IMG/VR virus record: IMGVR_UViG_3300033518_000398
Location: 1-64,000 of that record
Source: a virus
Lineage: Duplodnaviria; Caudoviricetes
Length of the DNA stretch: 64,000 bases
Strand: one strand, 5' to 3'
Shown here: piece by piece, positions 32,846 to 48,488 of the stretch
Numbering within the stretch: the first letter of the stretch is position 1
Layout of the letters: every line of letters starts with the position of its first letter
Notes under the pieces: model-generated
Told to the model about the DNA's origin: nothing
Seen by the model: the letters and a program-made list of their open reading frames with translations, nothing else
The model's database searches: none
Position numbers and translations under genes: made by a program

Positions 32846-34183
32846 TTAATGTTGAGATAGGAATATTTTTCTAACATCAGGTCTGCGTGCTTCAATATCA
32901 CCATCGCCTGTTGGCATAACAACAACGTTCCAAAATACACCCTCTTTTTGTGGGGTTTTCATCATTTCATCATACGTTAAAATTGATTCATGTTTCATTC
33001 TATATTCTGGATATGCATCTTCTGCAATTCTTCTTTTTAGTTCAGAGACACCCGCCCAACCATCGATAAACATAACCTTTCCTTTCTCATCGAGTGCATA
33101 TTCTTCACCAGTTTTACCACCCTTTTTGGATTTTTTAATTAATAGGTCATGAAAATATTTTTTCTGTAAAAAATTAGATGTTTTTGCAGTTTCCCACAAC
33201 CCATTTTCTTTTAATATATTGACTTGAATAGGATGTGCATTGGATGAAAACACAACTGTGAAATTTGGTGTTTGATTTATATATACATCTGCCATTTTTG
33301 TATACGCATAGGATTTTGCATTATATCCCCTTTCGATTAATCTATTCGTAACACGCATTGCAATATCATAATATACTTTTGTAAAGAAATCACCAGAATC
33401 ATTCCATCTCATATATAAAGTAATATCATTACCATGCATTTTACACAGCGTTTCAAGTTCATTGTATATTTTTTCTTCATATCGTTCTGGTTCATTTAAT
33501 AACCAATTCAATATTTGTGTTGCACGCAAGTATGGATTAGGATATTTGATATAATTTCCATGTCTGGCATAACAAGGTTTGATGCAGCTACCTGCACCGG
33601 GACAGGTCGTAATATAAATAAACTTATTTTTTTCTTTATCGTAAACCAATCCTTTAAACGCAGGTATACCAGTATTGTATGTTACAGAATCTTTAGTTGA
33701 AGACTTTTCCATCTTACTATTTGCATCGACAATATTTTTAGGTTCTTGTGAAATTTCTTTTATAAATCTTTCGACATCAAAATCACCAAGTGCCTGTACG
33801 ATTTCCTCATATTCTTCCCCACTAAGATTTAATGAACCAAGGTCACGAAATTTCAAATCTTTCCATATACCCTCTTCCCCCTTTTTACTTCTTCGTTTTA
33901 CTAATCTTGGGTCACCAGCTTTATGTATTGTAGATGCATGAATCCAAGGTTTAGAAATTGGAACTTCTGGTCTCTTCCCTGCAGACATTTTTTGTCTTTT
34001 TGCAAGAAAATTAAGATATTCAGCGAATTCCGTTGGGTCAATACATGTATGCTTATTTTCTAAATCATTATATAATGTTTGAAAATTTATTTCGTATAAC
34101 ATCTCGGAATCATCTTCAATCAATGATGTACCATTAATTTTGTTCATCATTTCGAATAATCGTTGTCTACTATCTTTAATCAT
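32846..34183 (-). CDS. GP88-like (radical-SAM-like Fe-S) protein with the LFE leader
   Basis: TCPGAGSCIKPCYARHG, MRWNDSGDF, YAYTKM; N-terminus MIKDSRQRLFEMMNKINGTSLIE. Confidence 0.65.
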   Translation of the reverse strand: MIKDSRQRLFEMMNKINGTSLIEDDSEMLYEINFQTLYNDLENKHTCIDPTEFAEYLNFLAKRQKMSAGKRPEVPISKPWIHASTIHKAGDPRLVKRRSKKGEEGIWKDLKFRDLGSLNLSGEEYEEIVQALGDFDVERFIKEISQEPKNIVDANSKMEKSSTKDSVTYNTGIPAFKGLVYDKEKNKFIYITTCPGAGSCIKPCYARHGNYIKYPNPYLRATQILNWLLNEPERYEEKIYNELETLCKMHGNDITLYMRWNDSGDFFTKVYYDIAMRVTNRLIERGYNAKSYAYTKMADVYINQTPNFTVVFSSNAHPIQVNILKENGLWETAKTSNFLQKKYFHDLLIKKSKKGGKTGEEYALDEKGKVMFIDGWAGVSELKRRIAEDAYPEYRMKHESILTYDEMMKTPQKEGVFWNVVVMPTGDGDIEARRPDVRKIFLSQH

Positions 34184-34271: not shown

Positions 34272-36326
34272 ATGAATTTAGAATGTTTAAATGATATAAT
34301 TACCGATAATTTAGCAATACACATCGATTTAACAGATATTAAATCGTGGGTAAACTGGAATACTGGTCTCACTGCGTTTAGTTTAACTAAATGGAATGGA
34401 GCAATTTCTGATAATATTAACTTAATTGATTTTGGACTAACTGGTTTCGATAACGGTAGAACCAATATTATGTGGAGTGGTATCACAGTCACACCGAAAG
34501 ATACGTTCTTCACGATGTATAGAGTGGGGTTTAATGAAGTGCATAACCCAACAACAGATGAAACGAGTGGTGTTACTGCTACAACATTTTATTATCCAAT
34601 AAGTGCAATTACATCGGGTGATACCGAAAATTATTATTTTGACCTTACTGGTGGTTATTTACAAGGATTTTTTAAACTTCAAAATTATAACTACGAATTA
34701 TTTCCATCAAGATATAATAAAGGTATAACAATTGAAACTATTGTATATTTACATCCTGATTCGCATGGAATATTTTTCATGATGGGCGCACGTGCTGAAG
34801 ATAAATACAATCCGTATTTTAGTGGTGAGACAATTACTGGTACGACAACTATTGGTGTAGTAACAAGTGAAGATAATTATTTGGATGCTATTACTGAATC
34901 CGAGGAATTGAAAACCGCTTTTATTCAACCCGAAGAAATGATGAAAACAGTTTATTCTGAAATTCCACAGGTTAATAATGTGCGAAACAACGTAATTGCC
35001 TTTGAACTAACTCAAGATAAGAGAATTGCATATAAATATATTAATAATGAGGGACTTATCATAACAAATAGCTCGCCAGCAATTGTTACTGCAACAGGTT
35101 TTACGATGATTGATATCGCATTTACCCCAGACATTATATTTAATAGTCCAACACAATTAGAATGTGCACCACAAAGAACAGGTAAGTTAATTTTTTATAT
35201 TAACGGGCGTGCCATGTGGATTGTTAAAGACTTTCCTGAGTTTTATTTTCATGCATTTAATAATGATAGAGAAAAAGAAATTGGTGTACCGTATTCAATT
35301 AGCTGGGGTGGTGGTAGTTTTGGATTAAAACATTCATGGCATTACGATTATCAAACATATGTAATGTATGATGGTCAAGATACTGATTATATTACTTCGA
35401 AATTCTTCGTAGAACCAGACCCAATTCCTACTGAATGTTATATTGCACCAACTGGTGACACATATTTGGCTGGGTTGTCATTAAGTGCAGATAGTGTGAC
35501 GTTTAAATATGTTGATGAATGTGACCCAGATGTTGAATATCCACTTACAGTAATGAGAATTCAATATACTGGTGGAACTGGTAATACATATTTTATAAAA
35601 TTCAATCAACCGATTTCAGTACTTTCAAACCGTGATTATAATGTTAACCTATTATTATATAATGATGATTTCTTTTCTGGTGATAGTATAAATAAGGTAT
35701 CTATATTAATGTATAGTGACGTTGTTGATATCAATGTCATCAAAGATATTGAATACATGCATCCAATAACCAGCGAATATATTGCAAGTCTACAAGATGA
35801 TACATTACATCCTTGGGGTGATGGTCAAGAATATCAATATAGTCTTGATGGTAAATTATATTATGGTGATAGTGGTTTGCCTGTTACATTGATAAATTCA
35901 ATGATTGTTGGATATGGTATGACTAATTATGGTTACTATGATGGTGGAGAAAATCATAGTGATTTAATGACTGGTGATAAAAATTGGTTACCTATGTATA
36001 GTACATTTAGAATACCTGATAATACTGGACAAAAGGAAATATTTATGGGACTTTTAATTCAAACTGATGGTGAATTTAATATAAACGGTAACCTATATAT
36101 TAATGGATTCACTTATACTGCAGCAGATATTTTGGTACAAGATGAAAGAAAAGATGATTTAACTATTCAACAAAACTTTGATTCTGGTTTTATTGGTGGT
36201 ATTCAGAAACTTAGAATATATGATAGAGCATTCACTTCTCCAGAAATATTACATAATGCATTAATTGAAAGAGAAAAGAATCCAAATATTATTGTAAGTA
36301 AAGGTGGTAGAATAATTTATAGGTAA
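34272..36326 (+). CDS. Virion protein with LamG/concanavalin-like features
   Basis: Beta-rich; KLIFYING, ISWGGG, FIGGIQKLRIYDRAF; late motif at 34246. Confidence 0.6.
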   Translation: MNLECLNDIITDNLAIHIDLTDIKSWVNWNTGLTAFSLTKWNGAISDNINLIDFGLTGFDNGRTNIMWSGITVTPKDTFFTMYRVGFNEVHNPTTDETSGVTATTFYYPISAITSGDTENYYFDLTGGYLQGFFKLQNYNYELFPSRYNKGITIETIVYLHPDSHGIFFMMGARAEDKYNPYFSGETITGTTTIGVVTSEDNYLDAITESEELKTAFIQPEEMMKTVYSEIPQVNNVRNNVIAFELTQDKRIAYKYINNEGLIITNSSPAIVTATGFTMIDIAFTPDIIFNSPTQLECAPQRTGKLIFYINGRAMWIVKDFPEFYFHAFNNDREKEIGVPYSISWGGGSFGLKHSWHYDYQTYVMYDGQDTDYITSKFFVEPDPIPTECYIAPTGDTYLAGLSLSADSVTFKYVDECDPDVEYPLTVMRIQYTGGTGNTYFIKFNQPISVLSNRDYNVNLLLYNDDFFSGDSINKVSILMYSDVVDINVIKDIEYMHPITSEYIASLQDDTLHPWGDGQEYQYSLDGKLYYGDSGLPVTLINSMIVGYGMTNYGYYDGGENHSDLMTGDKNWLPMYSTFRIPDNTGQKEIFMGLLIQTDGEFNINGNLYINGFTYTAADILVQDERKDDLTIQQNFDSGFIGGIQKLRIYDRAFTSPEILHNALIEREKNPNIIVSKGGRIIYR

Positions 36327-36526
36327 TGAGTCAATTGTCAGAAATTTTTGAGGGTTGGAAAAACTATGCATTTCCAAATAAGGAGGTGGAAAATGAAGCA
36401 AAACGTAGAATGACAATATGTGTGGGGTGCGATAAACTAAAAAAGAATAAATGTGTGTTGTGCGGATGTTATATGCCAGCAAAAGTCAGAAGTCCTAAAT
36501 CAAGATGTAGAATAAAGAAATGGTAG
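36326..36526 (+). CDS. Small Cys-rich (Zn-binding) protein
   Basis: RRMTICVGC..CVLCGCYMPAKVRSPKSRC..KW. Confidence 0.75.
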   Translation: MSQLSEIFEGWKNYAFPNKEVENEAKRRMTICVGCDKLKKNKCVLCGCYMPAKVRSPKSRCRIKKW

Positions 36527-36529
36527 GAA

Positions 36530-36988
36530 TTAACCAACCATTTGATGTTCTTTTGTTTTTTCCAACCAATTTAATTTATTGCTTGTAACAAGAAGATAAG
36601 TATTTTCAAATGCTCTACCTTGGACATTATCGGAATCAACACATATTTTTGAATAGCCTTCAAGTAACCTATTTTTATTTTCAGTAACAATTTCTATAAT
36701 TCCATTTAAACAAGTTACCCATCCAATATAGAAACGTTGTTTTAAGTCAAAATATGCATTTTTGGGAATGTAAAAAAACACAACACTTTCATTTGGATTA
36801 TCAAGATTAGGTATTTTCTTATATTTAATAGTGCTATCGTCTTCGCAATTATCCCATTCAGTAAAAAAACGAATAATGATACCGTCATCAACATTATGAA
36901 TCGATGGCAATTCTTTGAGTAATTCTGCTTTTCTTTTATTTAGCAGTACATCAATTTTGTCCAATATCATTTTCTTTTCCTCTGTCAT
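36530..36988 (-). CDS. Hypothetical protein
   Basis: 152-aa ORF. Confidence 0.65.
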   Translation of the reverse strand: MTEEKKMILDKIDVLLNKRKAELLKELPSIHNVDDGIIIRFFTEWDNCEDDSTIKYKKIPNLDNPNESVVFFYIPKNAYFDLKQRFYIGWVTCLNGIIEIVTENKNRLLEGYSKICVDSDNVQGRAFENTYLLVTSNKLNWLEKTKEHQMVG

Positions 36989-36989
36989 T

Positions 36990-37607
36990 CTAACAATATG
37001 GTATGTTTTGAATCTTGTCTCGCATTTCTGGTGTACGAATTTCTAATCTTGTTGCGCTTTCGATATATGTTTCACAAAAATGTCTGGTAAATAATGTCTG
37101 AATTTTTGGTGGTGCGTGTTTAAATGCAAGAAATTCGATTTCATCACCATCTTCGGTATTCAATGTAACATCAATATCACCCCACTCAAAACCATCAAAC
37201 CATGCATCTCCAGATGGTTCAATTGCATCTCCCATAGTACCACCCCAGTTCCCTTGGTCATACCATCCACCTTCGGATATTGAAATATCGTCACCATTAA
37301 AATTTAAATTGAAGCTAATCGGTTGTTTTTGTTGGTCATATTTATATTCAACAACTAAATAATATTCAAGACTGAGACTTGATGCGTTTTCATAATCACC
37401 TTCCCAATCTCCACCAATTCTCGAATCATAAATCTTGGTTTTTACATTACTTTTACTCAATAATGCATCACAAATAAATTGTTTTTGGAAATCTTCGTTT
37501 TTTAGTAAATTAATGGTTTCCATTTCCTTACTGTGCTCATCATTACCAAGAAAATCAAATTCTTGAATTTCTTCATTAATGATTTTTATAAATTCTTTTT
37601 TATTCAC
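36990..37607 (-). CDS. Late protein with IINEE N-terminal motif
   Basis: MNKKEFIKIINEEIQEF; late motif at 37623. Confidence 0.7.
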   Translation of the reverse strand: MNKKEFIKIINEEIQEFDFLGNDEHSKEMETINLLKNEDFQKQFICDALLSKSNVKTKIYDSRIGGDWEGDYENASSLSLEYYLVVEYKYDQQKQPISFNLNFNGDDISISEGGWYDQGNWGGTMGDAIEPSGDAWFDGFEWGDIDVTLNTEDGDEIEFLAFKHAPPKIQTLFTRHFCETYIESATRLEIRTPEMRDKIQNIPYC

Positions 37608-37791
37608 AGATAAAACTTTTTAATAAATACTAATAAATTTATATAAAATTGTTAGTTGTGAGTATTTATATTTGAAAATCATTGCTTAATTCGTATTAAG
37701 TTATGTCTGAAAAAAATCAGAGTGATTTTTGAAATTTTATCGCCTGATAGGGGTTATGTAAAATTTTAAGACTAACAAAGTGATTTATAAC

Positions 37792-37821
37792 TGCACCGTT
37801 TTTATAGCGGTGCATTTTTTT
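37792..37821 (+). terminator. Intrinsic terminator
   Basis: TGCACCGTT / AGCGGTGCA followed by a T-run. Confidence 0.8.
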
Positions 37822-37856
37822 ATATGGGTTTTAAGTATTTATTGAAAATTGTTGAA

Positions 37857-38141
37857 ATGAAGAAAAAAACTAAAGAAATGCTTTTTGAAATGATGGAAAA
37901 ATTAAATCCAGATTTCAATGTTCAAGAAGCTGGGGTTGCACCAGATGTTGTTAGTGCACAAAAAGCTACGACAACTAATGTGCAACGTGCTAATCAACGT
38001 ATTGGTACACCACAAGAATTTCAAGATGGTTTTATGGCATGGCTTGGAACAACAGGCTTTGACCCAGTAAAGAAACCATTAGGTATTTCTGATGCACAAT
38101 CTCGTGTGAAAAACGCAATGATTGCACTGGGTTATAAATAA
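37857..38141 (+). CDS. Late protein with the LFE leader
   Basis: MKKKTKEMLFEMMEKLNPDFNVQE; late motif at 37835. Confidence 0.7.
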   Translation: MKKKTKEMLFEMMEKLNPDFNVQEAGVAPDVVSAQKATTTNVQRANQRIGTPQEFQDGFMAWLGTTGFDPVKKPLGISDAQSRVKNAMIALGYK

Positions 38142-38175
38142 AAAATAATTATTTTTGAAAATAATTTGAAATTTG

Positions 38176-38206
38176 TTTGTATTTATGATTTTAATGCATA
38201 TATTTG
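38176..38206 (+). promoter_or_regulatory. Bacteroidota-type promoter for leader 1
   Basis: TTTG 38176-79, 19-nt spacer, TATATTTG 38199-206. Confidence 0.8.
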
Positions 38207-38243
38207 CACTCAGAAGTTTTAATAAATGTTATTTGTAGTTGAA

Positions 38244-38318
38244 ATGAAAAATTTAGTGAACATAGTGCCCCAACCGCAACAACATCCACAGGATGGTGAA
38301 TGGGGAAAGTACGCTTAA
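38244..38318 (+). CDS. Attenuator leader peptide 1 (Pro/Gln/His sensor)
   Basis: MKNLVNIVPQPQQHPQDGEWGKYA*. Confidence 0.8.
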   Translation: MKNLVNIVPQPQQHPQDGEWGKYA

Positions 38319-38348
38319 TTTTTCAATTGAAGTTTTAAGTTAAACATG

Positions 38349-38377
38349 ACCCCATTCTGAAAAGAGTGGGGTTTTTT
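38349..38377 (+). terminator. Attenuator 1 terminator
   Basis: ACCCCATTCT-GAAA-AGAGTGGGGT + T-run; 5' arm complementary to GAATGGGG at 38298-305. Confidence 0.85.
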
Positions 38378-38387
38378 ATTTTCATAT

Positions 38388-38465
38388 CTGGGTGTACTGC
38401 AGATGGCTATACTACGATGCCTTGGAAGCATCGGTCCGCAGGTTCGAATCCTGCCACTCAGACCA
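38388..38465 (+). tRNA. tRNA-Pro(TGG)
   Basis: GATGC-CT TGG AA-GCATC; T-loop GTTCGAATC; encoded CCA. Confidence 0.85.
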
Positions 38466-38469
38466 ATAT

Positions 38470-38545
38470 GGTGATTGTAGAGGAATTGGTAGACTCACCT
38501 GACTGTGAATCAGGAATCTTGCGGGTTCGAGTCCCGTCTTTCACC
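38470..38545 (+). tRNA. tRNA-His(GTG)
   Basis: CCTGA-CT GTG AA-TCAGG; G-1:C73. Confidence 0.85.
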
Positions 38546-38571
38546 CAAATATCGTTCTTTTATATGGTTAT

Positions 38572-38645
38572 AGAGTAGTAGCGCAGTTGGTTAGCGTACC
38601 GCATTTGGGATGCGGGGGTCGAGAGTTCGAGTCTCTCCTACTCTA
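38572..38645 (+). tRNA. tRNA-Pro(TGG), second copy
   Basis: CCGCA-TT TGG GA-TGCGG; canonical cloverleaf. Confidence 0.9.
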
Positions 38646-38649
38646 CTGT

Positions 38650-38720
38650 GTTAGTTGTAGATGCTGGCATTCTACACGTGACTGTGAATCACGGATACGG
38701 GGGTTCGATTCCCCTCTAAA
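38650..38720 (+). pseudogene. Degenerate tRNA-His(GTG)
   Basis: Intact anticodon arm CGTGA-CT GTG AA-TCACG and T-arm, but the 3' acceptor strand is largely lost. Confidence 0.65.
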
Positions 38721-38760
38721 AAATTTTTGTACTTAAAGTATTTATCTGAAAATTGTGTAT

Positions 38761-39123
38761 ATGAAAAAAGGTAATAAACAAATGTTATTTGAGATGATGC
38801 ATAAGGTTGCAGGAATGCCTTTAAATGAAATGGCAAAACCAATAAAAGAATTTCGTAATACAATTGGTGATAAAAAAATGGTTTATTATTTAATGCCAAA
38901 TACTCCCAAAGCAGAAGAAAAGGGTTATGATACTTCAATATTTAAGGTTGATAATTATCATGGTAACGTGACATTATCATATTATTGGTTAAATAGAGAA
39001 TCAGATGAAAATTGGTATAAACCCAAATATGGTACTCATGTAGATGAATATAAATCACAATATATTTCACAAAGTAGAGAACCAGAAAAAGCAAATATGT
39101 TAATTCAAAAGCATAATTTATAA
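38761..39123 (+). CDS. Late protein with the LFE...LNE leader
   Basis: MKKGNKQMLFEMMHKVAGMPLNE; late motif at 38738. Confidence 0.7.
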   Translation: MKKGNKQMLFEMMHKVAGMPLNEMAKPIKEFRNTIGDKKMVYYLMPNTPKAEEKGYDTSIFKVDNYHGNVTLSYYWLNRESDENWYKPKYGTHVDEYKSQYISQSREPEKANMLIQKHNL

Positions 39124-39169
39124 TATTATTGCATTAAATTATATTTATTTATATATATTTGCATAATAT

Positions 39170-39242
39170 TGACCTGTGGTGTAATTGGCAACACGTCTCA
39201 CTTTGACTGAGAAGAGTCCAAGTTCGAGCCTTGGCAGGTCAA
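39170..39242 (+). tRNA. tRNA-Gln(TTG)
   Basis: TCTCA-CT TTG AC-TGAGA; TATATTTG element at 39154-61 immediately upstream. Confidence 0.9.
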
Positions 39243-39258
39243 CTAATTTTCTTGGAAT

Positions 39259-39486
39259 ATGGATGAATTGGAAAAATTACGAAAAGAAAATGAAGATTTG
39301 AAAGACAAATTAACTGATTTGACTTTTGAATTGAATTATAATAAACAAACCGAGTTAATTGAATTCGTTCGTGAATTATATCAATCATTAGGTAATGTTG
39401 GTAAAAATCTTACAAAGAAAGAAATGATTGAAAATCTGAGAAACCATATTCGAGAGTTTACAAAAAATAATAAAATACAATTATGA
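39259..39486 (+). CDS. Hypothetical coiled-coil protein
   Basis: 75-aa ORF. Confidence 0.65.
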   Translation: MDELEKLRKENEDLKDKLTDLTFELNYNKQTELIEFVRELYQSLGNVGKNLTKKEMIENLRNHIREFTKNNKIQL

Positions 39487-39887
39487 GTAATTATAATCTT
39501 TACCTCGATGACTTTCGTCAACCAATTGATAGTAGTTACTATCTTAATAATCCCATATATGGAAACTTAAAATGGGAAGTTGTTCGAAGTTATGATGAAT
39601 TTGTGAAAATAATAACTGAAAAAGGTATTCCTGATATCGTGAGTTTCGACCATGATTTGGCTGATGAACATTACGACCCAGAATTACATGGTAGTGAAAC
39701 CTATAACGAAAAATACGATAATTTTGTATTTAAAACTGGATATGATTGCGCCAAATGGTTTATTAATTATTGTATTGATAACCAAAAAGATGTACCAGAA
39801 AAAATTTTCATTCATTCTATGAATCCAGCAGGAAGTGCTAATATTAAATCGTTATTTGATACATATAATAAGTATCGTAGAATTTAA
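39483..39887 (+). CDS. Cyclic-phosphate-processing receiver-domain-like protein
   Basis: LYLDDFR, VRSYDEF, VSFDHDL, TGYDCAKW, IHSMNPAG. Confidence 0.7.
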   Translation: MSNYNLYLDDFRQPIDSSYYLNNPIYGNLKWEVVRSYDEFVKIITEKGIPDIVSFDHDLADEHYDPELHGSETYNEKYDNFVFKTGYDCAKWFINYCIDNQKDVPEKIFIHSMNPAGSANIKSLFDTYNKYRRI

Positions 39888-40616
39888 TTACCTTCCTCCA
39901 GCACTCCTTGAACCAGAAGTACCTGTTGAACTTCCAGCACTTCTTGTTGGTTGTGAATAACTACGTGACGTTGTATTTGACGGTGCTCTTGTCGGTGCAG
40001 TACGAGAATATGAGGGAGCAGTTGAGGGTGCGGTTCTTGTTGGTGTATTATATGTACGTGATTGAGTATTTGATGTAGGTCTGGTTGTAGTATTTCTACT
40101 TCGAGTCACATCATTATTATATGTCGGACGTGTAGATGTTCGAGGTACAGTATAGGTTGGTTTATATTCTCTTGTATATGTTGGTTTTGATTTGATGTTA
40201 ACATGGTTTGAAACCACGTATCTATGTCCATAATAATGGTTAATATAATAGCTGTTACGACCCCAATATCCATAATAGTAGCTATTATAATATCTATTAT
40301 AGTAATATGGTGTATACCAATAATTATAATAAAAGGGGTCATAATGGAGACAATAGGGACGATATACATATCCAAATGTTAATAAAACCCGATAATTTGG
40401 TTGGTCATTGTCTTCATAATAGTTGTTAATTATAACGGGTTCAGATTTTTCTTTAACAATTATATAAACAGTATCTGTTTTTGTCGTGTCAGGAGTTCCA
40501 TATAATTCTTTATCTTTCTCAATACGATATTTTTCGTAATTTGAAAGTTCAGCTTCTTGTCCAATTAAAACAAATGCAAAGAGAATTGCGAGTAGTGTTA
40601 ATAGTATCTTTTTCAT
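39888..40616 (-). CDS. Secreted protein with Tyr-rich and Arg/Thr/Ser-rich low-complexity tail
   Basis: Signal peptide MKKILLTLLAILFAFVLIG. Confidence 0.7.
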   Translation of the reverse strand: MKKILLTLLAILFAFVLIGQEAELSNYEKYRIEKDKELYGTPDTTKTDTVYIIVKEKSEPVIINNYYEDNDQPNYRVLLTFGYVYRPYCLHYDPFYYNYWYTPYYYNRYYNSYYYGYWGRNSYYINHYYGHRYVVSNHVNIKSKPTYTREYKPTYTVPRTSTRPTYNNDVTRSRNTTTRPTSNTQSRTYNTPTRTAPSTAPSYSRTAPTRAPSNTTSRSYSQPTRSAGSSTGTSGSRSAGGR

Positions 40617-40698
40617 GACTTGTGTGTTTTTAATTAAAAGACAATTAACGTGCCAAAATTTTACATGAAAATCAACTATTTATAGTAAATTTCATTAC

Positions 40699-41184
40699 AT
40701 GAAAAAACAAGATAGCAAACAAAGACTTTTTGAAGTTATGGGAAGACTTGACAAAACATTCAAGTCTAAATTAAATGAAAATATGGGTGTAGCACTTAAT
40801 GAAGAAAGTAGACCATTATATGATATAGCTCAAGAAATATATCAAGACTGGAAACCAGTACATCCTTATGCAAAAGAATATCTTGATGCAATGTCAAGTC
40901 TATCGTCAATAAATGATAAATATATGTTTGATTCTGGAAGTGAGATTGTAGCACGTTTTCTTTCAAATGCAAGTCAATGGAAAGGCGAAACAGCTAAAAG
41001 AATAAAGACCGAACTAAAACAAATGTTGGGATTGAAAGAGGGTTATTATGATGATGAGGGTGATGACTCTGATGCTGGACATACAGTAAATGGTAAATTA
41101 TTATCTCCAGATGAATATAGGAAATGGAAAGAAGAAGAAGGAGAATATGATGACATGGATAAACTTAACAGACCAAGATATTGA
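40699..41184 (+). CDS. Late protein with the SKQRLFE...LNE leader
   Basis: MKKQDSKQRLFEVMGRLDKTFKSKLNE. Confidence 0.75.
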   Translation: MKKQDSKQRLFEVMGRLDKTFKSKLNENMGVALNEESRPLYDIAQEIYQDWKPVHPYAKEYLDAMSSLSSINDKYMFDSGSEIVARFLSNASQWKGETAKRIKTELKQMLGLKEGYYDDEGDDSDAGHTVNGKLLSPDEYRKWKEEEGEYDDMDKLNRPRY

Positions 41185-41240
41185 AATATCATTAAGAATT
41201 AATTTTAATAAGCATATTTATTGATTTTTTTTGGAAAATG

Positions 41241-41270
41241 TTTGTATTTATGAAAAATTGATTATCTTTG
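41241..41270 (+). promoter_or_regulatory. Bacteroidota-type promoter for leader 2
   Basis: TTTG 41241-44, 18-nt spacer, TATCTTTG 41263-70. Confidence 0.8.
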
Positions 41271-41295
41271 CAGAAGAAATTTAAAATTTAAAACA

Positions 41296-41385
41296 ATGAG
41301 AAATTTACTCGACATATTAATGGTAGCTTTGGAAGCAGTCCTATTATGGGCAGCAGATGAGGATAAAATACGTTCAGTCGGGTAA
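41296..41385 (+). CDS. Attenuator leader peptide 2 (Leu/Asp/Glu/Trp/Met-rich)
   Basis: MRNLLDILMVALEAVLLWAADEDKIRSVG*. Confidence 0.75.
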   Translation: MRNLLDILMVALEAVLLWAADEDKIRSVG

Positions 41386-41416
41386 TACAATATTACACAC
41401 TCCTTTCTTTAATAAG

Positions 41417-41451
41417 AAAAACCCGACTCTCCACAATAAGTCGGGTTTTTT
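41417..41451 (+). terminator. Attenuator 2 terminator
   Basis: AAAAACCCGACT / AGTCGGGTTTTT; 5' arm complementary to AGTCGGGT at 41376-83. Confidence 0.85.
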
Positions 41452-41465
41452 GTTTTAGTGTGTAG

Positions 41466-41477
41466 GTTCTTTGACAT
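41466..41477 (+). promoter_or_regulatory. boxA-like antitermination element
   Basis: GTTCTTTGACAT between the terminator and tRNA-Asp. Confidence 0.65.
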
Positions 41478-41488
41478 GTTGGAAATTT

Positions 41489-41559
41489 GGTCTATTGGGG
41501 TATGGGTATCCTTGGTGGTTGTCGCCCACCAGAAGCGAGTTCGAGTCTCGCATAGACCG
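41489..41559 (+). tRNA. tRNA-Asp(GTC)
   Basis: GGTGG-TT GTC GC-CCACC; G73. Confidence 0.85.
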
Positions 41560-41594
41560 CCTGACTTATTTTCTTTTTCTGTGTATTTATGTAT

Positions 41595-42308
41595 ATGGAA
41601 AAAGAAAATAAGTATTATTTGGTTTATAAAACAACCAATTTGAAAAATGGTAAGTTTTATATTGGTGTTCACGAAACATATAATCTCAATGACGGTTATT
41701 TGGGTTCTGGGAAAGTTCTTAGGAACAGCGTTTATTATCATGGGAAAGAAAATTTTAAAAGGGAAATTCTTGAATTCTGTGAAGATAAAAAAAGCATGTA
41801 TCAAAAAGAAAAGGAATTTGTTACTGAAGAACTGATAATGAATTCTAAATGTATGAATTTAGTTGTTGGTGGAATGGGATTCATTAATGATGAAAAACAT
41901 CGTGAGGTTTCACAATTAGGTGGTAATGCGACTTCATTGAAACTAAAAAATGACCCAGAATTTAGAAAGAGACATCAAAAAATTGTCTCGGAGAATATGA
42001 AAAAAGCGCATCAATTAGGAAAAATTATACCACCTGATTGGACTGGTAAAAAACATAAAGAAGAAACAAAAAGAAAAATCGGAATAAAAAATTCAATCAA
42101 ACAAAGTGGCATTAATAATTCACAATTTGGTACTTGTTGGATAACAAAAAACGGTAATGATAAAAAAATAAAAAAAGAATACCTTCAAGAATATCTTTCT
42201 GAAGGTTGGATTAAAGGTAGATATGCTCGGTTCGAATCCGATATGGGGTACAAAGTATATTCAATTTCACAGTGCTTTGGTGTGGTCATTACCTATTTTT
42301 TCAAGTAA
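41595..42308 (+). CDS. GIY-YIG homing endonuclease with NUMOD3-like motif
   Basis: YLVYKTTNLKNGKFYIGVH, YLGSG, WTGKKHKEETKRKIG; late motif at 41583. Confidence 0.85.
   Translation: MEKENKYYLVYKTTNLKNGKFYIGVHETYNLNDGYLGSGKVLRNSVYYHGKENFKREILEFCEDKKSMYQKEKEFVTEELIMNSKCMNLVVGGMGFINDEKHREVSQLGGNATSLKLKNDPEFRKRHQKIVSENMKKAHQLGKIIPPDWTGKKHKEETKRKIGIKNSIKQSGINNSQFGTCWITKNGNDKKIKKEYLQEYLSEGWIKGRYARFESDMGYKVYSISQCFGVVITYFFK
42225..42251 (+). pseudogene. 3' tRNA fragment (T-arm plus acceptor strand; Glu-like, identity unproven)
   Basis: TCGG-TTCGAAT-CCGA then TATGGGGTAC. Confidence 0.45.
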
Positions 42309-42371
42309 TAATTCATGTCTTTTAAATGATTATTTGAATATTTTTTGTATTTATGATAAACATAACAACCA

Positions 42372-42722
42372 ATGAAAATATTAATTGTTGATGATAATAC
42401 ATTAGTACACTATTTGATAAAAGCCATGATTGAAGCAATGATTGAAGAAAATGGTTTTGAATTGTTTGATGTATATAACGGTGAAGAAGCGGTTGATTTT
42501 GCATTAAATAATGAATTGGACTTGATTTTCATGGACATAATGATGCCAATATTAGATGGTATTGAAGCAACTAAAATAATAAAAAAATTCTCACCCAACA
42601 TACCAATAATATGTATTAGTGCATATCAACAGAATCAAGAGATATCTCGTTTATTTGATGACATAGTTCAAAAACCATTTGTAACTAAGCAAATAATAGG
42701 TAAAATTAAAAAATACGAATAA
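42372..42722 (+). CDS. Stand-alone CheY-like response-regulator receiver domain
   Basis: KILIVDD, DLIFMDIMMP.LDG, PIICISA, KPF. Confidence 0.9.
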   Translation: MKILIVDDNTLVHYLIKAMIEAMIEENGFELFDVYNGEEAVDFALNNELDLIFMDIMMPILDGIEATKIIKKFSPNIPIICISAYQQNQEISRLFDDIVQKPFVTKQIIGKIKKYE

Positions 42723-42751
42723 CATCCAGTATTTATGATAAACCTAAAGTT

Positions 42752-43270
42752 ATGGATTATCATATAATGTTATTTCTGACAATGATTGCAGTATTTGTTT
42801 CATATATTGCTGCAGTATGGATTAAATTTGGCGTACAGCCATCAATAAGTGCAAGTTATGATTGTTGGAAAGGTAATTGGCAATCATTATTCACTCTTTT
42901 CTGTTGGGGATTTGCATTTCCTGCAATGATTATTGGTGTAGAGGTAACACCATTGATGTTTTTCGCAACTGCTGGAATAATGTTCGTTGGTGCTGCATAT
43001 CAAATAAAAAATCCTTGGGTATATAAATATCACATGATATTTGCAGTATCAGGAATAATTTTCAGTCAATTAGCAATATATTTTGGTTATGATTTATTAT
43101 GGTTAAACATTGTGTCTGTTGCGTTAACCGCATTAATATTATTAGCTAAACAATTTCTGGGTTTAAAGAATCACTTCTGGTGGATGGAGTTAGTGTACTT
43201 TGCTGCAATAGTTTATGCTATGGGAACTAAGATTATTCCTCTACTGTATCTAACAACATTTTTATTTTAA
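42752..43270 (+). CDS. Multi-pass membrane protein
   Basis: About five hydrophobic segments; late motif at 42729. Confidence 0.75.
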   Translation: MDYHIMLFLTMIAVFVSYIAAVWIKFGVQPSISASYDCWKGNWQSLFTLFCWGFAFPAMIIGVEVTPLMFFATAGIMFVGAAYQIKNPWVYKYHMIFAVSGIIFSQLAIYFGYDLLWLNIVSVALTALILLAKQFLGLKNHFWWMELVYFAAIVYAMGTKIIPLLYLTTFLF

Positions 43271-43273
43271 TAT

Positions 43274-43344
43274 ACGTCTTTGGTGTAACGGTAGCACGAT
43301 TCTCTCCAAAAGAATTAGTACTTGTTCGAATCGAGTAAGACGTG
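43274..43344 (+). tRNA. tRNA-Trp(CCA)
   Basis: ATTCT-CT CCA AA-AGAAT; G73. Confidence 0.88.
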
Positions 43345-43388
43345 CAATATTAAAAACATGCATTTAAAATTAATCATTTATTTATTAA

Positions 43389-43697
43389 TTATAAAGTAAA
43401 ACCCTTGGTAGATTGCCTTTTACCATTCAATACATGATATGTTGTTGTTTCATCTAATTTATGTTTTTTACAAAAATTTTTAACTGACTTAAATTGATAT
43501 TTAATACCATTTCTATATAGAATATGTTCTTTATTGTTATATTTTATTCTATTTCTTAATTCGGTTAGTGTAAAATCATGTTTTTTAAAAACAGTCCAAT
43601 TTTTAAAAAATGTCATTTTAAGTTTTCTTAACATTAATGACATTAACATCTTATCATTTAAATTATTGTCTTTACAAAATTTGGAAAAATTATCCAC
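43389..43697 (-). CDS. Small NUMOD1/HTH-like protein (endonuclease-associated remnant)
   Basis: FKSVKNFCKKHKL...HVLNGKR; late motif at 43720. Confidence 0.5.
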   Translation of the reverse strand: MDNFSKFCKDNNLNDKMLMSLMLRKLKMTFFKNWTVFKKHDFTLTELRNRIKYNNKEHILYRNGIKYQFKSVKNFCKKHKLDETTTYHVLNGKRQSTKGFTL

Positions 43698-43820
43698 CCC
43701 ATAAAATTTATTCTTAGTTATAAATACGTAAATATTAACAAAAATTAAATAATATATAAAAACTTTGTTTGTTTTTATATATTATTTACATATCTTTGTA
43801 ATTATTAATAAATTCTTTAT

Positions 43821-44558
43821 ATGCTTATAATAAATCATAAGAAAAAGGATTATTATGATGGTGTTGCTGGTACTACTGGCATTGATAAGACCATTGTATA
43901 TCATCGTGAAGTAATTGAACTTGAAGAAGATAAACTACCCAAACAATTTAGAAGAAAAAGTAATTGGAGAAAAGAAGATATTAATCCATTACGTGAGTTG
44001 AGTACATTTAAGTTAAAAAAAGAATTTCATGATGTTTGTGAAGACTATTCATATTTTATAATTGGCTTTTGTGGTAAACTATATATAGGTTGGAAACTTT
44101 ATCGTGAGGAAATATTCCCATACATGGTCGATACTGAAATCACATTTGATTCCGAGTACATGAAATCTATTTTAGAACCAAAATCTTGGTATAATAATCT
44201 CGAAGATAATATTAATTATATTCAGAAGTTTGATGCGATTCAGATTTTCAGAGATTTAAAAACACCAGTTTTTGTATTTGATAATGATTATAGTAGAACA
44301 CAACTTGATACCAAACATTATTCGATTAGAAATTATAATCCGAAATTTTTCGTAAACCCAGTTCTAAAAGAGTATCAATTTTATAAAGTGTTTGAATCAT
44401 TTCAAGCTTTTCAAGAAATTCAGATGTTTCTTGGTGGTGTACTTGGTAGTGGTGAAAAAAACATTGTAGAAGTGGCTGATAAATATAAAATTACCCAGCA
44501 TGGGTTTGATAAATGGAGTTTTAGAAAAATGTCTGAAAATGGAAAAAGAACTACATAA
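43821..44558 (+). CDS. Hypothetical protein
   Basis: 245-aa ORF; promoter TTTG 43768 / TATCTTTG 43791. Confidence 0.75.
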   Translation: MLIINHKKKDYYDGVAGTTGIDKTIVYHREVIELEEDKLPKQFRRKSNWRKEDINPLRELSTFKLKKEFHDVCEDYSYFIIGFCGKLYIGWKLYREEIFPYMVDTEITFDSEYMKSILEPKSWYNNLEDNINYIQKFDAIQIFRDLKTPVFVFDNDYSRTQLDTKHYSIRNYNPKFFVNPVLKEYQFYKVFESFQAFQEIQMFLGGVLGSGEKNIVEVADKYKITQHGFDKWSFRKMSENGKRTT

Positions 44559-44823
44559 TATTTATATAATACCAGCAGTATTTGTTAGATACAGAGAAGA
44601 TGGCAACGTGATTTTAAGATGTTTACAGGGTAAAGAAACTGTTGACAGGGCATTTGAACCCAATTTAATAAAAGGTATTGAAAACCCAAAGTATTTATTG
44701 CTGGGAATCATGGCTGGTGTTGGATACATGCAGTTAAATGTTTGCGATGGTGAAGAGTTTGTGAATTTATTCATAAAAAAATGGAATGTGTTGTATCAGG
44801 ATGTTAATTATAAATTAAAATAG
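44500..44823 (+). CDS. Hypothetical protein (start uncertain)
   Basis: ORF following 43821-44558. Confidence 0.6.
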   Translation: MGLINGVLEKCLKMEKELHNIYIIPAVFVRYREDGNVILRCLQGKETVDRAFEPNLIKGIENPKYLLLGIMAGVGYMQLNVCDGEEFVNLFIKKWNVLYQDVNYKLK

Positions 44824-44918
44824 TGTTGCTAACCACTCTATAGGAGAACGTGACTTACGGACATTGAGTGATTAATGGTTTCAGTATGTAAGAAGCGCAC
44901 ACGATTTCCGCAACATTA
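44821..44918 (+). ncRNA. Candidate structured ncRNA
   Basis: 9-bp closing stem TAGTGTTGC/GCAACATTA; lies before boxA and tmRNA. Confidence 0.4.
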
Positions 44919-44938
44919 TTTTTGTTCATTGATATTAT

Positions 44939-45303
44939 GGGGGCGACTTGGATTTGATTAGATGTCAGATTGGTAAAGTAAGCAAGTCTTAGTTGAATCA
45001 GACTAAGTAAAAAAGGTTCAAAGCAGAAATGCAAACAATTTTTCAGAGGACATGATGTCCTTCTCAACTTCTGTAACAAGAGGTATCACCGTTTTCGAGA
45101 GTGCTGAACTCGAAATGGCTGCTTGAGAACAATAAACGGCAAAAACTTCTGGTGAAGTAAGTTATGAATAAGTTAGTAACGAATCCCGAAGCGAAACTAA
45201 TATTAAACTGTTATATTTTGCTGATTTAGAAAAATCGGATAAACTTGTAGAAAACCTATTAATCACATTTAAGACGAGGGTTCGAATCCCTCCGCTTCCA
45301 CCA
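44939..45303 (+). ncRNA. ssrA: tmRNA
   Basis: 5' GGGGGCGACTTGGATTTGA, G3.U70, 3' GGTTCGAATCCCTCCGCTTCCACCA; tag ORF 45031-45126 ending in MAA*. Confidence 0.92.
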
Positions 45304-45325
45304 ATTTATTTAAAATCAATTAGTT

Positions 45326-45754
45326 ATGAATTCGAAGTTTGAAGAAATGAGTAAGAAATTGCAAGAATTTCTTGACTCAGCAGAAGGTGATGAATATTTT
45401 GAAAAACTGGATAGAAAGAATAAAATTCAGGAAGGTCGTTATAGACGTTTCGAAAAATATCTTGAAACCCATGACTTTGATAAACTAATTTATCGTTTAA
45501 TTCTGGAACACGGTGAACAATGGCGTGAAAAATGTTATCATAATGGCTGTGAGGTTTATCCAAACAATAAACTACAATTTATCATTGACTACGTTTTTGA
45601 AACCTTTGAACCAATTAGTGTATCTCAAATCGAAACTATGTTTAATACCGACATCAGGTTCTTTAGAGGATATTTTTTCAGAATAATGCATGGACAGGGT
45701 TCTGTTTTTGATTTGTATAATGGTGACGATTTTAGGCATTTATTAAGTGCTTGA
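45326..45754 (+). CDS. Hypothetical protein
   Basis: 142-aa ORF. Confidence 0.7.
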   Translation: MNSKFEEMSKKLQEFLDSAEGDEYFEKLDRKNKIQEGRYRRFEKYLETHDFDKLIYRLILEHGEQWREKCYHNGCEVYPNNKLQFIIDYVFETFEPISVSQIETMFNTDIRFFRGYFFRIMHGQGSVFDLYNGDDFRHLLSA

Positions 45755-45757
45755 TTT

Positions 45758-45785
45758 GGCGGGATGGTGAAACTGGTAGACACGC
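45758..45785 (+). pseudogene. 5' fragment of a Leu-type tRNA
   Basis: GGCGGGATGGTGAAACTGGTAGACACGC (acceptor strand plus D-arm) with no further arms. Confidence 0.55.
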
Positions 45786-45831
45786 TGTAATCTTTTTCCT
45801 GAGTGTGTAGTATTTATGAAAAATAAATATT

Positions 45832-46298
45832 ATGCCGAAACAGATTAAAAGTAGAATTAATGATGAATATTTTATCTCAGTATGTAAATCATCAAAGACT
45901 ATGGCGCAAGCAGCAGCCACATTAAAGATACATTTCAATAGTTTTAGAAGACGTGCAATTATTTTAGAATGTTATAAAACAAATCAAAGTGGAAAGGGAA
46001 CGAGGAAAAGACCTTCGAAACTAATACCAATAGAAGATATAATATTTGAAAATAAACACCCTGAATATCAGACATTTAAATTAAAAAAAAATTAATTAAG
46101 GAAGGATATAAAAAAAATGAATGTGAAGAATGTGGACAAAAAGAAGTGTGGAACAATAATAAACTTGAAATGGAATTAGACCATATTGATGGCAATAGAA
46201 CAAATCATTTGTTGACGAATTTAAAAATGTTATGTCCTAATTGTCATAGTCAAACAAAAACATTTTGTGGTAAAAATAAAAATGGGGATGTGTTGTAA
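45832..46298 (+). pseudogene. HNH endonuclease split by a -1 frameshift in an A9 run (46083-46091)
   Basis: Second frame encodes CEECG...LDHIDGNRTNH..NLKMLCPNCHSQT; late motif at 45810. Confidence 0.8.
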
Positions 46299-46369
46299 CT
46301 GGTAGCCAAGACGGACTTAAAATTCGTTGTTCAGAAATGAACGTGTGGGTTCGACTCCCACCATCCCTA
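46284..46369 (+). tRNA. tRNA-Leu(TAA)
   Basis: ACGGA-CT TAA AA-TTCGT; long variable arm; A73. Confidence 0.88.
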
Positions 46370-46408
46370 CAAACACTATCGCTCTTTGACATATAGGAGA
46401 ATTTTATA

Positions 46409-46720
46409 ATGGATATACAATCATTTATTTTAGGAATGTGTGCTGTATTGGTAATTGCGTTAGTGATTGGCAGTGTAGTTGCACTTATTAGGGTGATAAA
46501 ATTGAAAAAACTTGTCGAATTATCAACAAGTACTGCCTTAAGACTCATAGAAGATGCTGGAAATGAAACCATAACTATGATTAATCAATTACGCACTGAA
46601 ATTGATGGTGTACATAGAGAAATCAATGAAGTGCGTAGAGAAATGGATTCGAGATACGATAAATTAAAATCAACGTTTTCTAAGGAAATTGAAAACGCAG
46701 TGAAACATAAAAATAATTAA
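46409..46720 (+). CDS. Membrane-anchored coiled-coil protein
   Basis: N-terminal TM segment followed by heptad-like region. Confidence 0.7.
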   Translation: MDIQSFILGMCAVLVIALVIGSVVALIRVIKLKKLVELSTSTALRLIEDAGNETITMINQLRTEIDGVHREINEVRREMDSRYDKLKSTFSKEIENAVKHKNN

Positions 46721-46764
46721 TATTAAAAGTTGTCAAGGTCGGTAGTGTTTTTTAAATAAAATGT

Positions 46765-47031
46765 ATGAAAGAAATTAAAGCAGCAATACGCAAAGAACTT
46801 CGTAAAGAATGTCGAGAAGAAGCACTAAAAATTCTTATACTCGGTGATGATAAAGACCGTGAGGATTTTCTTAAATATCATAATGAGGATAAGGGTAATA
46901 TTTGTTGTTTGGTTCTGGATTATGCTAAGAAAAAATTAATTGAAGCCAATAAGTGGGAATTTAATGCTGAAGACTGTTTTAATGACCCATTCAAACATTT
47001 TGAAGACGATGATACCATACGGGAAGAATAA
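46765..47031 (+). CDS. Hypothetical protein
   Basis: 88-aa ORF. Confidence 0.6.
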   Translation: MKEIKAAIRKELRKECREEALKILILGDDKDREDFLKYHNEDKGNICCLVLDYAKKKLIEANKWEFNAEDCFNDPFKHFEDDDTIREE

Positions 47032-47188
47032 AAAATTACATAAAAATTACACCGATTGTCATCCTAAAAAATTAGGAAAAGGTTGGGTGAATTGGTGGGA
47101 AGCAGAACTTGGTGGAATTGATAAGGGTAGTGAACGTCAAGAAGCTAAGAAAGAAATTAGAAAAGAACTCGATGAAAAAGTTAACTAA
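47009..47188 (+). CDS. Small basic protein
   Basis: MIPYGKNKKLHKNYTDCHPKKLGKGWVNWWE...SERQEAKKEI. Confidence 0.6.
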   Translation: MIPYGKNKKLHKNYTDCHPKKLGKGWVNWWEAELGGIDKGSERQEAKKEIRKELDEKVN

Positions 47189-47291
47189 AAACGATGATTG
47201 TGGGTGCGGTAGACCACTTAAAATAACTGACCCAAGAAGAAAAAAGGCTGGTATAAAAAAAACCACACCTAAAAGAAATACCCCCAGATGA
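47172..47291 (+). CDS. Small basic peptide
   Basis: MKKLTKNDDCGCGRPLKITDPRRKK; stop lies inside tRNA-Leu(CAA). Confidence 0.45.
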   Translation: MKKLTKNDDCGCGRPLKITDPRRKKAGIKKTTPKRNTPR

Positions 47292-47355
47292 TGTAACTGG
47301 CAAACGTGTTCGGCTCAAACCCGAAATTTTGTGGGTTCGAATCCCACTCTGGGGA
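47282..47355 (+). tRNA. tRNA-Leu(CAA) with short variable loop
   Basis: TTCGG-CT CAA AC-CCGAA; 5-nt variable loop ATTTT. Confidence 0.8.
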
Positions 47356-47433
47356 CATATGGCTCAACTAATATAGGTTTATGGCTCAATTTTGAGCTAT
47401 TTTGAGCTACAAAGAGTATTTATATTTGTGAAC

Positions 47434-47601
47434 ATGAAAGAAAAACTATTAAAAAAAAGAAACGAATTATTACAACGACTTGCAGATTTTATATACGAAA
47501 GACTGAATGCATCTAAAACTGAACAAGAGTTTAGTTTTTGGATGTGGCAGGGTTTAAGTCTGAATTATTGGTGTGTTGAACGTAAAATTTGGCTTAACTA
47601 A
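47434..47601 (+). CDS. Small hypothetical protein
   Basis: MKEKLLKKRNELLQRLADF...; late motif at 47416. Confidence 0.6.
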   Translation: MKEKLLKKRNELLQRLADFIYERLNASKTEQEFSFWMWQGLSLNYWCVERKIWLN

Positions 47602-47603
47602 TT

Positions 47604-47783
47604 ATGGTTAATAGAGAACGTGTAAAACAAATGTTAAGTCACTATAAAAAAAGACTAAAGAAATATGGTCTTAAAGAAAGTGACGGAAAAATGTATGCTT
47701 TCAGAACAACTGGAAGTCCTTGTAGTTGTCCAGCATGTAGTGGTAATAAATATAGTAGAAAACAAAAACATAAAAAGCTATGA
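47604..47783 (+). CDS. Small basic Zn-ribbon-like protein (absent from the ORF track)
   Basis: 59 aa, ...FRTTGSPCSCPACSGNKYSRKQKHKKL*. Confidence 0.6.
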   Translation: MVNRERVKQMLSHYKKRLKKYGLKESDGKMYAFRTTGSPCSCPACSGNKYSRKQKHKKL

Positions 47784-47832
47784 AAGAAAAATTTAAAGTC
47801 TTGTAAATTGCTCTAATGCAATTTCAAGACAG

Positions 47833-48126
47833 ATGACAAATAAAAAAATTGTAGACAAAACCACCAATCGTGGGGAATTCAATCGTGCGTATAAAAGGCA
47901 TCTTGAAAGCAAAGGTAAAATCCGTTGTACTTATTGTCGTTATCATCGTAATGAAAATGGTAAAGGCAGAGGATATTATGGTGGATATGATGATGACAAC
48001 ATCAAATACCCAAACTGGAAATTGGTTTCAAAACAACCAAAACAATGGATGAAAAAACCAATGAAAATCGTTGAACAACCTACACGTTGGTATGGTAGTC
48101 AAATTTATATCGACATCAAATGGTGA
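47833..48126 (+). CDS. Small basic protein
   Basis: RCTYCRYHRNEN...PNWKLVSKQPKQW. Confidence 0.65.
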   Translation: MTNKKIVDKTTNRGEFNRAYKRHLESKGKIRCTYCRYHRNENGKGRGYYGGYDDDNIKYPNWKLVSKQPKQWMKKPMKIVEQPTRWYGSQIYIDIKW

Positions 48127-48137
48127 TGTCGATAAAT

Positions 48138-48210: not shown

Positions 48211-48217
48211 CAAACAA

Positions 48218-48243: not shown

Positions 48244-48257
48244 GATTTCCAATATGT

Positions 48258-48476: not shown

Positions 48477-48488
48477 TTTATTTCTATT

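Follow-up and report, generated by a model that had tools for sequence, protein, structure and literature searches.

Probable trp-operon-style control of phage tRNA genes by a leader of Pro, Gln and His codons

The IMG/VR phage record IMGVR_UViG_3300033518_000398 is 78.8 kb long and an estimated 23% complete, and its first 64 kb (the stretch analysed here, hereafter the window) contain at 38244-38318 a small leader open reading frame (ORF) that is followed by a transcription terminator and by tRNA genes for proline, histidine and glutamine. We propose that these tRNA genes are subject to trp-operon-style control, in that the phage probably transcribes its Pro, His and Gln tRNAs only when ribosomes read the corresponding codons slowly. 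On the basis of sequence comparison and modelled folding we consider it likely that the leader with its terminator (cassette A) is a working codon-sensing leader-peptide attenuator of the tRNA operon. An earlier, sequence-only reading had suggested that a ribosome stalled on the Pro/Gln/His codons frees an RNA segment (segment 2) to block the terminator. Comparison strongly supports this attenuator reading, by way of 36 homologues, the joint change of leader and tRNAs, three paralogous cassettes in the window (B, C and D) and a simulation of ribosome footprints.

Why phages carry tRNA genes, and how these genes are controlled, is a long-standing question. According to current ideas such genes compensate for codon usage or help the phage to escape defences that target tRNAs, and under either idea constitutive production of the tRNAs is assumed.

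Organization of the Pro/Gln/His cassette

Transfer RNAs and other RNAs were called with ARAGORN and with Rfam scans at default and permissive settings. Cassette A and the genes behind it were found to consist of the following elements:

38176-38206, plus strand: Bacteroidota-type promoter, by pattern match (-33 TTTG, a spacer of about 19 nt, -7 TAnnTTTG)
38244-38318, plus strand: leader ORF of 24 codons plus TAA, kept in 36 distinct homologues
38268-38291, plus strand: regulatory block, codons 9-16, CCC CAA CCG CAA CAA CAT CCA CAG, encoding Pro-Gln-Pro-Gln-Gln-His-Pro-Gln
38268-38272 (CCCCA) and 38283-38287 (CATCC), plus strand: segment 1, inside the regulatory block
38291-38295, plus strand: spacer arm GGATG, which pairs with CATCC of the His-Pro codons
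38298-38305, plus strand: segment 2, GAATGGGG, with segment 1 or the 5' arm of the terminator as partner
38350-38357, plus strand: segment 3, CCCCATTC, in the 5' arm of the terminator
38348-38385, plus strand: intrinsic terminator, with stem 38348-38373, a GAAA loop and a T-tract to 38385; -14.4 kcal/mol
38388-38724, plus strand: tRNA array called by ARAGORN, with Pro(UGG) at 38388, His(GUG) at 38471, Pro(UGG) at 38572 and His-like(GTG) at 38647
39170-39243, plus strand: tRNA-Gln(UUG), with its own -7-type box at 39154-39161

The run of eight consecutive Pro, Gln and His codons that had been noticed in the sequence-only reading is indeed present. These three amino acids account for 8.6% of the residues in the long ORFs of the phage, and eight of them in a row are expected at about 3e-9 per position. 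The first two Pro positions are occupied by CCC and CCG, the Pro codons that the phage uses least (10% and 8%); they could sharpen the sensor or serve the CCCCA:UGGGG pairing.

The three alternative pairings that had been predicted were recovered as well. The elements of the 1:2 pairing (CCCCA, CATCC and GGATG) are in place, and the minimum-energy fold of the leader consists of the 1:2 hairpin and the terminator (z = -4.75 relative to shuffles). Segment 3 is the exact complement of segment 2, so that the 2:3 duplex has 8 of 8 base pairs (-14.6 kcal/mol). The 3:4 stem of the terminator comprises 11 pairs followed by the T-run and is the strongest among 13 terminator-like sites in the region 36000-50000. 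The Glu-Trp-Gly codons of the leader coincide exactly with segment 2.

ARAGORN returned the order Pro, His, Pro, His-like and Gln with anticodons tgg, gtg, tgg, gtg and ttg, just as had been read from the letters. The tRNA-Pro gene starts only 3 nt past the T-tract, which leaves no room for another promoter, so that the array can be reached by read-through of the terminator only. The fourth tRNA, described earlier as degenerate, is weak: it has no default Rfam match, reaches 31.9 bits at permissive settings, and has a damaged acceptor stem when compared with the orthologue in the homologous locus L002. An inserted ORF of 120 amino acids (38761-39123) separates tRNA-Gln from the array; in relatives the Gln gene is found directly or closely behind His. 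Of 21 aligned homologues of cassette A, 20 show hardly any variation in the promoter block. The promoter pattern was not enriched in the window as a whole (8 found versus 5.8 expected), and support for the promoter thus rests on position and conservation.

Conservation of the leader and co-variation with the downstream tRNAs

IMG/VR was scanned twice, once with the peptide-coding string as the only anchor and once with the RNA segments as the only anchor and the codons left free. With the peptide anchor the small ORF was recovered on about 25 contigs of low G+C content, and segment 2 and the terminator, both outside the query, were present on all of them. The RNA-anchored scan yielded 50 loci (38 distinct), among which were 36 homologous leaders. 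The carriers are uncultured T4-like jumbo phages.

The Pro/Gln/His block was found in 36 of the 36 homologues, with changes in its length and order (e.g. in L168, L171 and L164), and in every case it is bracketed by an ATG and an in-frame stop codon. The third positions of the regulatory codons are the most variable (0.99 bits, versus 0.38 and 0.49 for the first and second positions). CCCCA was kept in 32 of the 36 and the terminator in all. The first downstream gene is tRNA-Pro in nearly all homologues for which flanking sequence was available, followed in most by His and/or Gln.

Judging from the sequences of three exceptional loci, leaders change their codon content in step with the tRNAs encoded downstream. 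In L182 an Arg codon (CGC) directly precedes the block, and the first gene past the terminator is tRNA-Arg(ACG). In L165 the same scaffold carries a leader rich in Lys, with four genes for tRNA-Lys, and in L184 the block lacks a His codon and no tRNA-His was found within 2.1 kb.

Three paralogous cassettes and the complete set of amino acids

The tRNA genes of the record are concentrated in an island of about 30 kb with 25 tRNA genes and one tmRNA. Two complete relatives (G001, 349 kb, and G002, 328 kb) contain the same island with the order kept. Three further cassettes, all with a promoter, a leader, an antiterminator and a terminator, were identified in the window:

41241-41488, plus strand: cassette B, with a promoter, leader 41296-41385, antiterminator 41376-83, terminator 41422-45 and a boxA-like motif at 41466
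53745-53988, plus strand: cassette C, with leader 53804-53893, antiterminator 53859-66 and terminator 53923-42
61783-62060, plus strand: cassette D, with leader 61866-61994, antiterminator 61969-76 and terminator 62021-41

The correspondence between codons and tRNAs is observed in each of them. The leader of cassette B is rich in Leu, Asp, Glu, Val, Ala, Trp and Met and is followed by Asp, Trp, Leu, Leu and Met tRNAs, whereas that of cassette C contains a Tyr/Lys block and is followed by tRNA-Tyr and tRNA-Lys only. The leader of cassette D is rich in Ser, Asn, Ile, Thr, Gly, Arg, Cys and Phe, and its tRNAs are Cys, Ile, Ser, Gly, Ile, Asn, Asn and Thr plus four Arg, with a minus-strand gene (62066-62737) inserted between cassette and tRNA cluster. 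Between them, the corresponding tRNA sections of G002 ({P,H,Q}, {D,E,V,L,A,W,M}, {K,Y} and {C,I,S,F,G,N,T,R}) account for all 20 amino acids. When leaders were assigned to sections in each of the 24 possible ways, the actual assignment came out best in all three genomes (summed -log10 P of 12.6, 18.3 and 17.4), and the match holds at the codon level too, under strict wobble rules. Surveys of IMG/VR gave 18 distinct leaders of class B, 23 of class C and about 17 of class D, each followed by cognate tRNAs. The antiterminator and terminator sequences differ between the classes, and in class D also between orthologues, with complementarity kept.

Another recurrent element is the motif GTTC(T/A)TTGA(C/A)AT, which is located 15-32 nt upstream of tRNA-Asp, the tmRNA, tRNA-Tyr and tRNA-Cys and also directly after the terminator of cassette D (window 41466, 44924, 53957, 62049 and 62871; G001 240523 and 258890; G002 58806 and 38837). 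It is found on both sides of the inserted gene 62066-62737, and it is not present in cassette A of the window. The motif resembles the boxA of rrn operons, which lies downstream of the promoter and recruits NusB/NusE for antitermination; a literature look-up for the motif gave nothing usable, and it could be a processing or promoter element instead. A loose boxA-like pattern was discarded, its matches being mostly random sites.

Folding of the leader and ribosome geometry

A total of 155 terminator hairpins were predicted in the record and the two complete relatives, nine of them at most 80 nt from a tRNA; the 146 others served as controls. The upstream complements to the 5' arm of the nine tRNA-adjacent terminators ranged from -8.7 to -16.9 kcal/mol, versus a mean of -6.7 for the 146 (Mann-Whitney p = 7e-6), and the complement of cassette A ranks in the top 5% of the control terminators. 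The combination of a strong antiterminator complement with tRNAs close downstream occurred among the controls only in the class A cassette of G002.

Ribosome positions along the leader were modelled by folding a nascent transcript that stops where the terminator's 5' arm ends, with a 27-nt ribosome footprint kept unpaired. In cassette A the full antiterminator of 8 bp was obtained with the P-site on codons 1-14 and never on codons 15-25, so that the boundary falls inside the cognate block. The boundaries in the other cassettes (codons 23/24 in B, 15/16 in C and 31/32 in D) each correspond to the end of the cognate-rich block. When no ribosome was present, segment 1 of cassette A held segment 2 and left the terminator arm free, whereas in cassettes B, C and D the antiterminator formed in the ribosome-free nascent transcript. 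In class A leaders, pairing of the variable spacer before segment 2 (codons 17-18) with the His-Pro codons was seen in every case and surpassed 500 of 500 shuffles, and it is from this one control that the support for the small hairpin before segment 2 comes.

Proposed mechanism

We infer that the leader ORF is translated, that stalling within it controls read-through and that scarcity of the cognate tRNAs is the biological trigger. Host RNA polymerase would start at the Bacteroidota-type promoter and make the 24-codon leader. As long as Pro-, Gln- and His-tRNAs are plentiful, the ribosome would pass codons 9-16 and cover segment 2, upon which the terminator would fold and transcription would end 3 nt before tRNA-Pro. 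A shortage of any of these tRNAs, or of its charged form, would stall the ribosome on the block; the stall would melt the 1:2 hairpin and leave segment 2 free to pair with the 5' arm of the terminator. With the antiterminator formed, the polymerase would read into tRNA-Pro, His and Pro (and ancestrally into Gln too), and the tRNAs produced would relieve the stall. Because these products are the sensed tRNAs, the circuit would feed back negatively on the capacity to decode these codons. This phage appears to use such a circuit four times.

Points against the attenuator and alternative explanations

Several observations weigh against this mechanism. Equilibrium folding with the whole terminator and a ribosome footprint gave the terminator always in cassettes A and D, and the antiterminator at a few positions only in B and C. 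With the terminator so dominant at equilibrium, switching has to be kinetic, like that of the classical attenuators. This type of folding did not discriminate, and folding of the nascent transcript was used instead. Such a kinetic switch would hinge on pausing and coupling in a Bacteroidota host. For the 1:2 pairing, a chimera test for covariation in the small hairpin before segment 2 gave a null result, with a mean of -3.92 kcal/mol for native and chimeric sequences alike, since there is hardly any variation in the 5' arm. Similarly, segments 2, 3 and 4 are nearly invariant in class A and offer no covariation within the class; with RNAalifold, the consensus of 36 class A sequences consisted of the terminator only. 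In cassette C the stop codon is located 25 nt past segment 2, so that a terminating ribosome leaves this segment unmasked. The conservation of the N-terminal residues 2-7, and that of the pattern of residues behind segment 2, exceeds what a pure codon sensor requires, and the His codon was kept in L060, L097, L112 and L175, where no tRNA-His was found in the available flank. The sequence-only reading had rightly cautioned that tRNA-Gln has a promoter element of its own, which in the window loosens the coupling of Gln-codon sensing to Gln supply. Finally, extra tRNA would not relieve stalls that result from amino-acid starvation.

Other explanations were weighed as well. The cassettes might be general sensors of translation status, such that any loss of ribosome traffic (host shut-off, a ribosome-targeting defence) induces the tRNAs and the content of the leader is secondary. 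This would be in line with the folding of cassettes B, C and D, where lack of translation alone could give read-through, and with the nearest published case, a tRNA array of Anabaena that responds to general translational stress (PMC8421152). However, the ribosome-free fold of cassette A sequesters segment 2 and predicts termination without translation, and neither the occurrence of four leaders with four cognate codon sets nor the joint change of leader and tRNAs is explained; we therefore regard a general sensor as unlikely. The conservation of residues 2-7 and of the Glu-Trp-Gly...Tyr tail would suit an ORF that encodes a functional micropeptide and has a terminator to itself, and the terminator is strong and wins every time at equilibrium; the tRNAs would in that case stem from constitutive leaky read-through or processing and the likeness to an attenuator would be incidental. 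Yet the order of the block is shuffled with its composition kept, which is unusual for a functional peptide, and the Glu-Trp-Gly codons are exactly those of segment 2. Moreover, each of four unrelated peptides reflects the tRNA set of its own cassette, L182 and L165 co-vary with their tRNAs, and the control terminators, with the one exception in G002, lack the strong complement with tRNAs close downstream. A mere micropeptide thus seems quite improbable.

An untranslated leader, with the codon run read by tRNA anticodons in the manner of a T-box or with protein-mediated antitermination, would also tolerate variation at third positions through anticodon wobble pairing. It is very improbable nevertheless: there was no T-box or other riboswitch match at threshold in the window, no element was seen that could pair with the acceptor end of a tRNA, eight to thirty specifier-like codons are without precedent, and a conserved ATG and in-frame stop surround the block in all homologues. 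AT-rich DNA is full of short ORFs, and a short ORF, a terminator and tRNA genes could conceivably have come together by chance, but the comparative data effectively refute this: the statistics of the control terminators and of the Pro/His/Gln run, the 36 homologues and the three paralogous cassettes all speak against it. A codon-sensing attenuator remains the reading that we prefer.

Genomic setting and neighbouring genes

The window has a G+C content of 31% and encodes T4-type proteins, namely a major capsid protein (gp23 family), a portal protein (gp20 family), a large terminase and a prohead protease. The closest cultured relative of the capsid protein is that of a Flavobacterium phage (33% identity). 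A DNA similarity search against cultured phages gave the tRNAs as the sole matches, and protein searches with the small ORFs flanking cassette A gave almost no relatives. A scan of genome contigs returned two mis-binned phage contigs and two chance matches only, and hence no bacterial chromosomal example and no clue to the host.

Two genes of an RNA-repair type lie within the tRNA island. A cyclic-phosphate-processing receiver-domain protein (PF20274, E = 1.5e-20) is encoded at 39483-39887, directly after tRNA-Gln, and is found next to tRNA-Gln in L002 as well; a T4 Rnl1-type RNA ligase (PF09511, E = 1.3e-18) is encoded at 51095-52183, upstream of the Tyr/Lys cassette. Between tRNA-Asp and tRNA-Trp, at 42372-42722, lies the gene for a stand-alone response-regulator receiver domain protein (PF00072, E = 1.9e-20). 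The phage tmRNA (44939-45303) scores 97 bits with the Rfam model, has a predicted tag of 31 residues and is preceded by the boxA-like motif. We also found a conserved stretch of about 110 nt (window ~37680-37820, L002 ~860-990, and also L037, L039, L060, L082 and L097) that contains a -7-type box of its own as well as a strong terminator (37792-37814). In several relatives the stretch immediately precedes the class A promoter; it has no consistent ORF start and is a candidate small RNA. Small proteins encoded at 37857-38141, 38761-39123 and 40699-41184, and in L002 at 3001-4175, have an N-terminal motif in common (Lys/Gln-rich, then Leu-Phe-Glu-x-Met) and unrelated bodies; they occur in tandem in L002 too and had no Pfam matches.

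Apparently mobile genes of an endonuclease-like type are scattered between the tRNA genes at 62066-62737 (minus strand), 41589-42308 (plus strand) and 46146-46298 (plus strand), and include a zf-FCS protein, a GIY-YIG and an HNH-like one. Intein-type insertions were seen in the prohead protease and in the large subunit of ribonucleotide reductase, the latter with a LAGLIDADG domain (12566-14512, minus strand; 57667-61236, plus strand), and a Mom-family domain is fused to a GIY-YIG domain at 7333-9063 (minus strand). ARAGORN called a tRNA with a four-base anticodon at 63210-63281 of the window, and amber-suppressor-type tRNAs (anticodon CTA) in G001 (268386-268463) and in G002 (33976-34047); the latter may relate to stop-codon reassignment or read-through in the clade.

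Implications

If the attenuator reading is true, the supply of phage tRNAs would be regulated by demand, codon family by codon family, and leader-peptide attenuation, known for amino-acid and synthetase genes, would extend to tRNA genes. Dozens of uncultured jumbo phages share the design, and since each leader would list the tRNAs of its operon, both the limits of operons and the loss of tRNAs in such phages could be predicted from the leaders. The cassettes might also offer compact, portable sensors of decoding capacity for single codon families.

A more tentative view, to which we give rather limited credence, is that the four cassettes form a single codon-resolved surveillance system for the tRNA pool of the cell. 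The phage would then detect which host tRNAs have been lost, for instance to the anticodon nucleases of anti-phage defence or to its own shut-off, and replace exactly those, and the cassettes would work alongside the Rnl1-type ligase, the cyclic-phosphate-processing receiver protein and the phage tmRNA of the island.

Comparison with known systems

No Rfam family matched the leader at threshold. Sub-threshold matches were obtained to the His_leader (RF00514, 17.9 bits versus a threshold of 49), the trpB motif (25.4 versus 59) and PyrR (21.3 versus 54); these, and a match to the PyrG leader, were rejected, their alignments resting on the terminator hairpin. T-box riboswitches have in common with the cassettes that transcription attenuation reports the state of a specific tRNA. 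They differ in that they bind uncharged tRNA directly, use a single specifier codon, are untranslated and control synthetase and amino-acid genes, and no T-box was detected at gathering level in the whole window or at E-values up to 5 in the region 38150-38800.

The trn operon of Anabaena sp. PCC 7120 is a long tRNA array that is silent by default and induced when translation is impaired, and it is controlled by the repressor TrcR, which binds direct repeats over the -10 box (PMC8421152; PMC10272220). Neither of the two papers mentions a leader peptide, attenuation or a terminator. Both arrays are supernumerary and horizontally mobile and are accompanied by RNA-repair genes (rtcB in Anabaena, the Rnl1-type ligase and the cyclic-phosphate-processing receiver protein here). 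The response in Anabaena, however, is one to general stress and is not codon-specific. A full-text literature search found no account of leader-peptide control of tRNA genes.

The attenuator of the E. coli pheST operon (phenylalanyl-tRNA synthetase), with its pheM leader, senses charged tRNA via cognate codons. It resembles the phage cassettes in that leader-peptide attenuation acts on a gene of the translation apparatus rather than of biosynthesis, and differs in that this gene encodes a synthetase protein, a single amino acid is sensed and the system is located on a bacterial chromosome.

Textbook leader-peptide attenuators are those of the amino-acid operons, such as trpL, hisL, pheL and leuL and the multivalent thrL and ilvL. 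The phage cassettes have in common with these a short leader with a run of regulatory codons, the alternative 1:2, 2:3 and 3:4 pairings and an intrinsic terminator directly before the regulated genes, and would likewise have the antiterminator favoured when the ribosome stalls on cognate codons. Cassettes B and D would each respond to several amino acids, much as the multivalent thr and ilv leaders do. The phage cassettes differ in being phage-borne, in having Bacteroidota-type promoters, in being present in four copies and in lacking any sequence relationship to the operon leaders. An ORF with a codon run, a terminator without an intervening promoter, an exclusive antiterminator and, in silico, the appropriate ribosome geometry all place cassette A with the leader-peptide attenuators; its regulated genes, however, are tRNAs and not genes for biosynthesis, transport or a synthetase, and we therefore class it as a variant of leader-peptide attenuation rather than as a plain member. 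Where the operon attenuators regulate biosynthetic enzymes, the phage cassettes would regulate tRNAs, so that their output acts directly on the quantity that is sensed.

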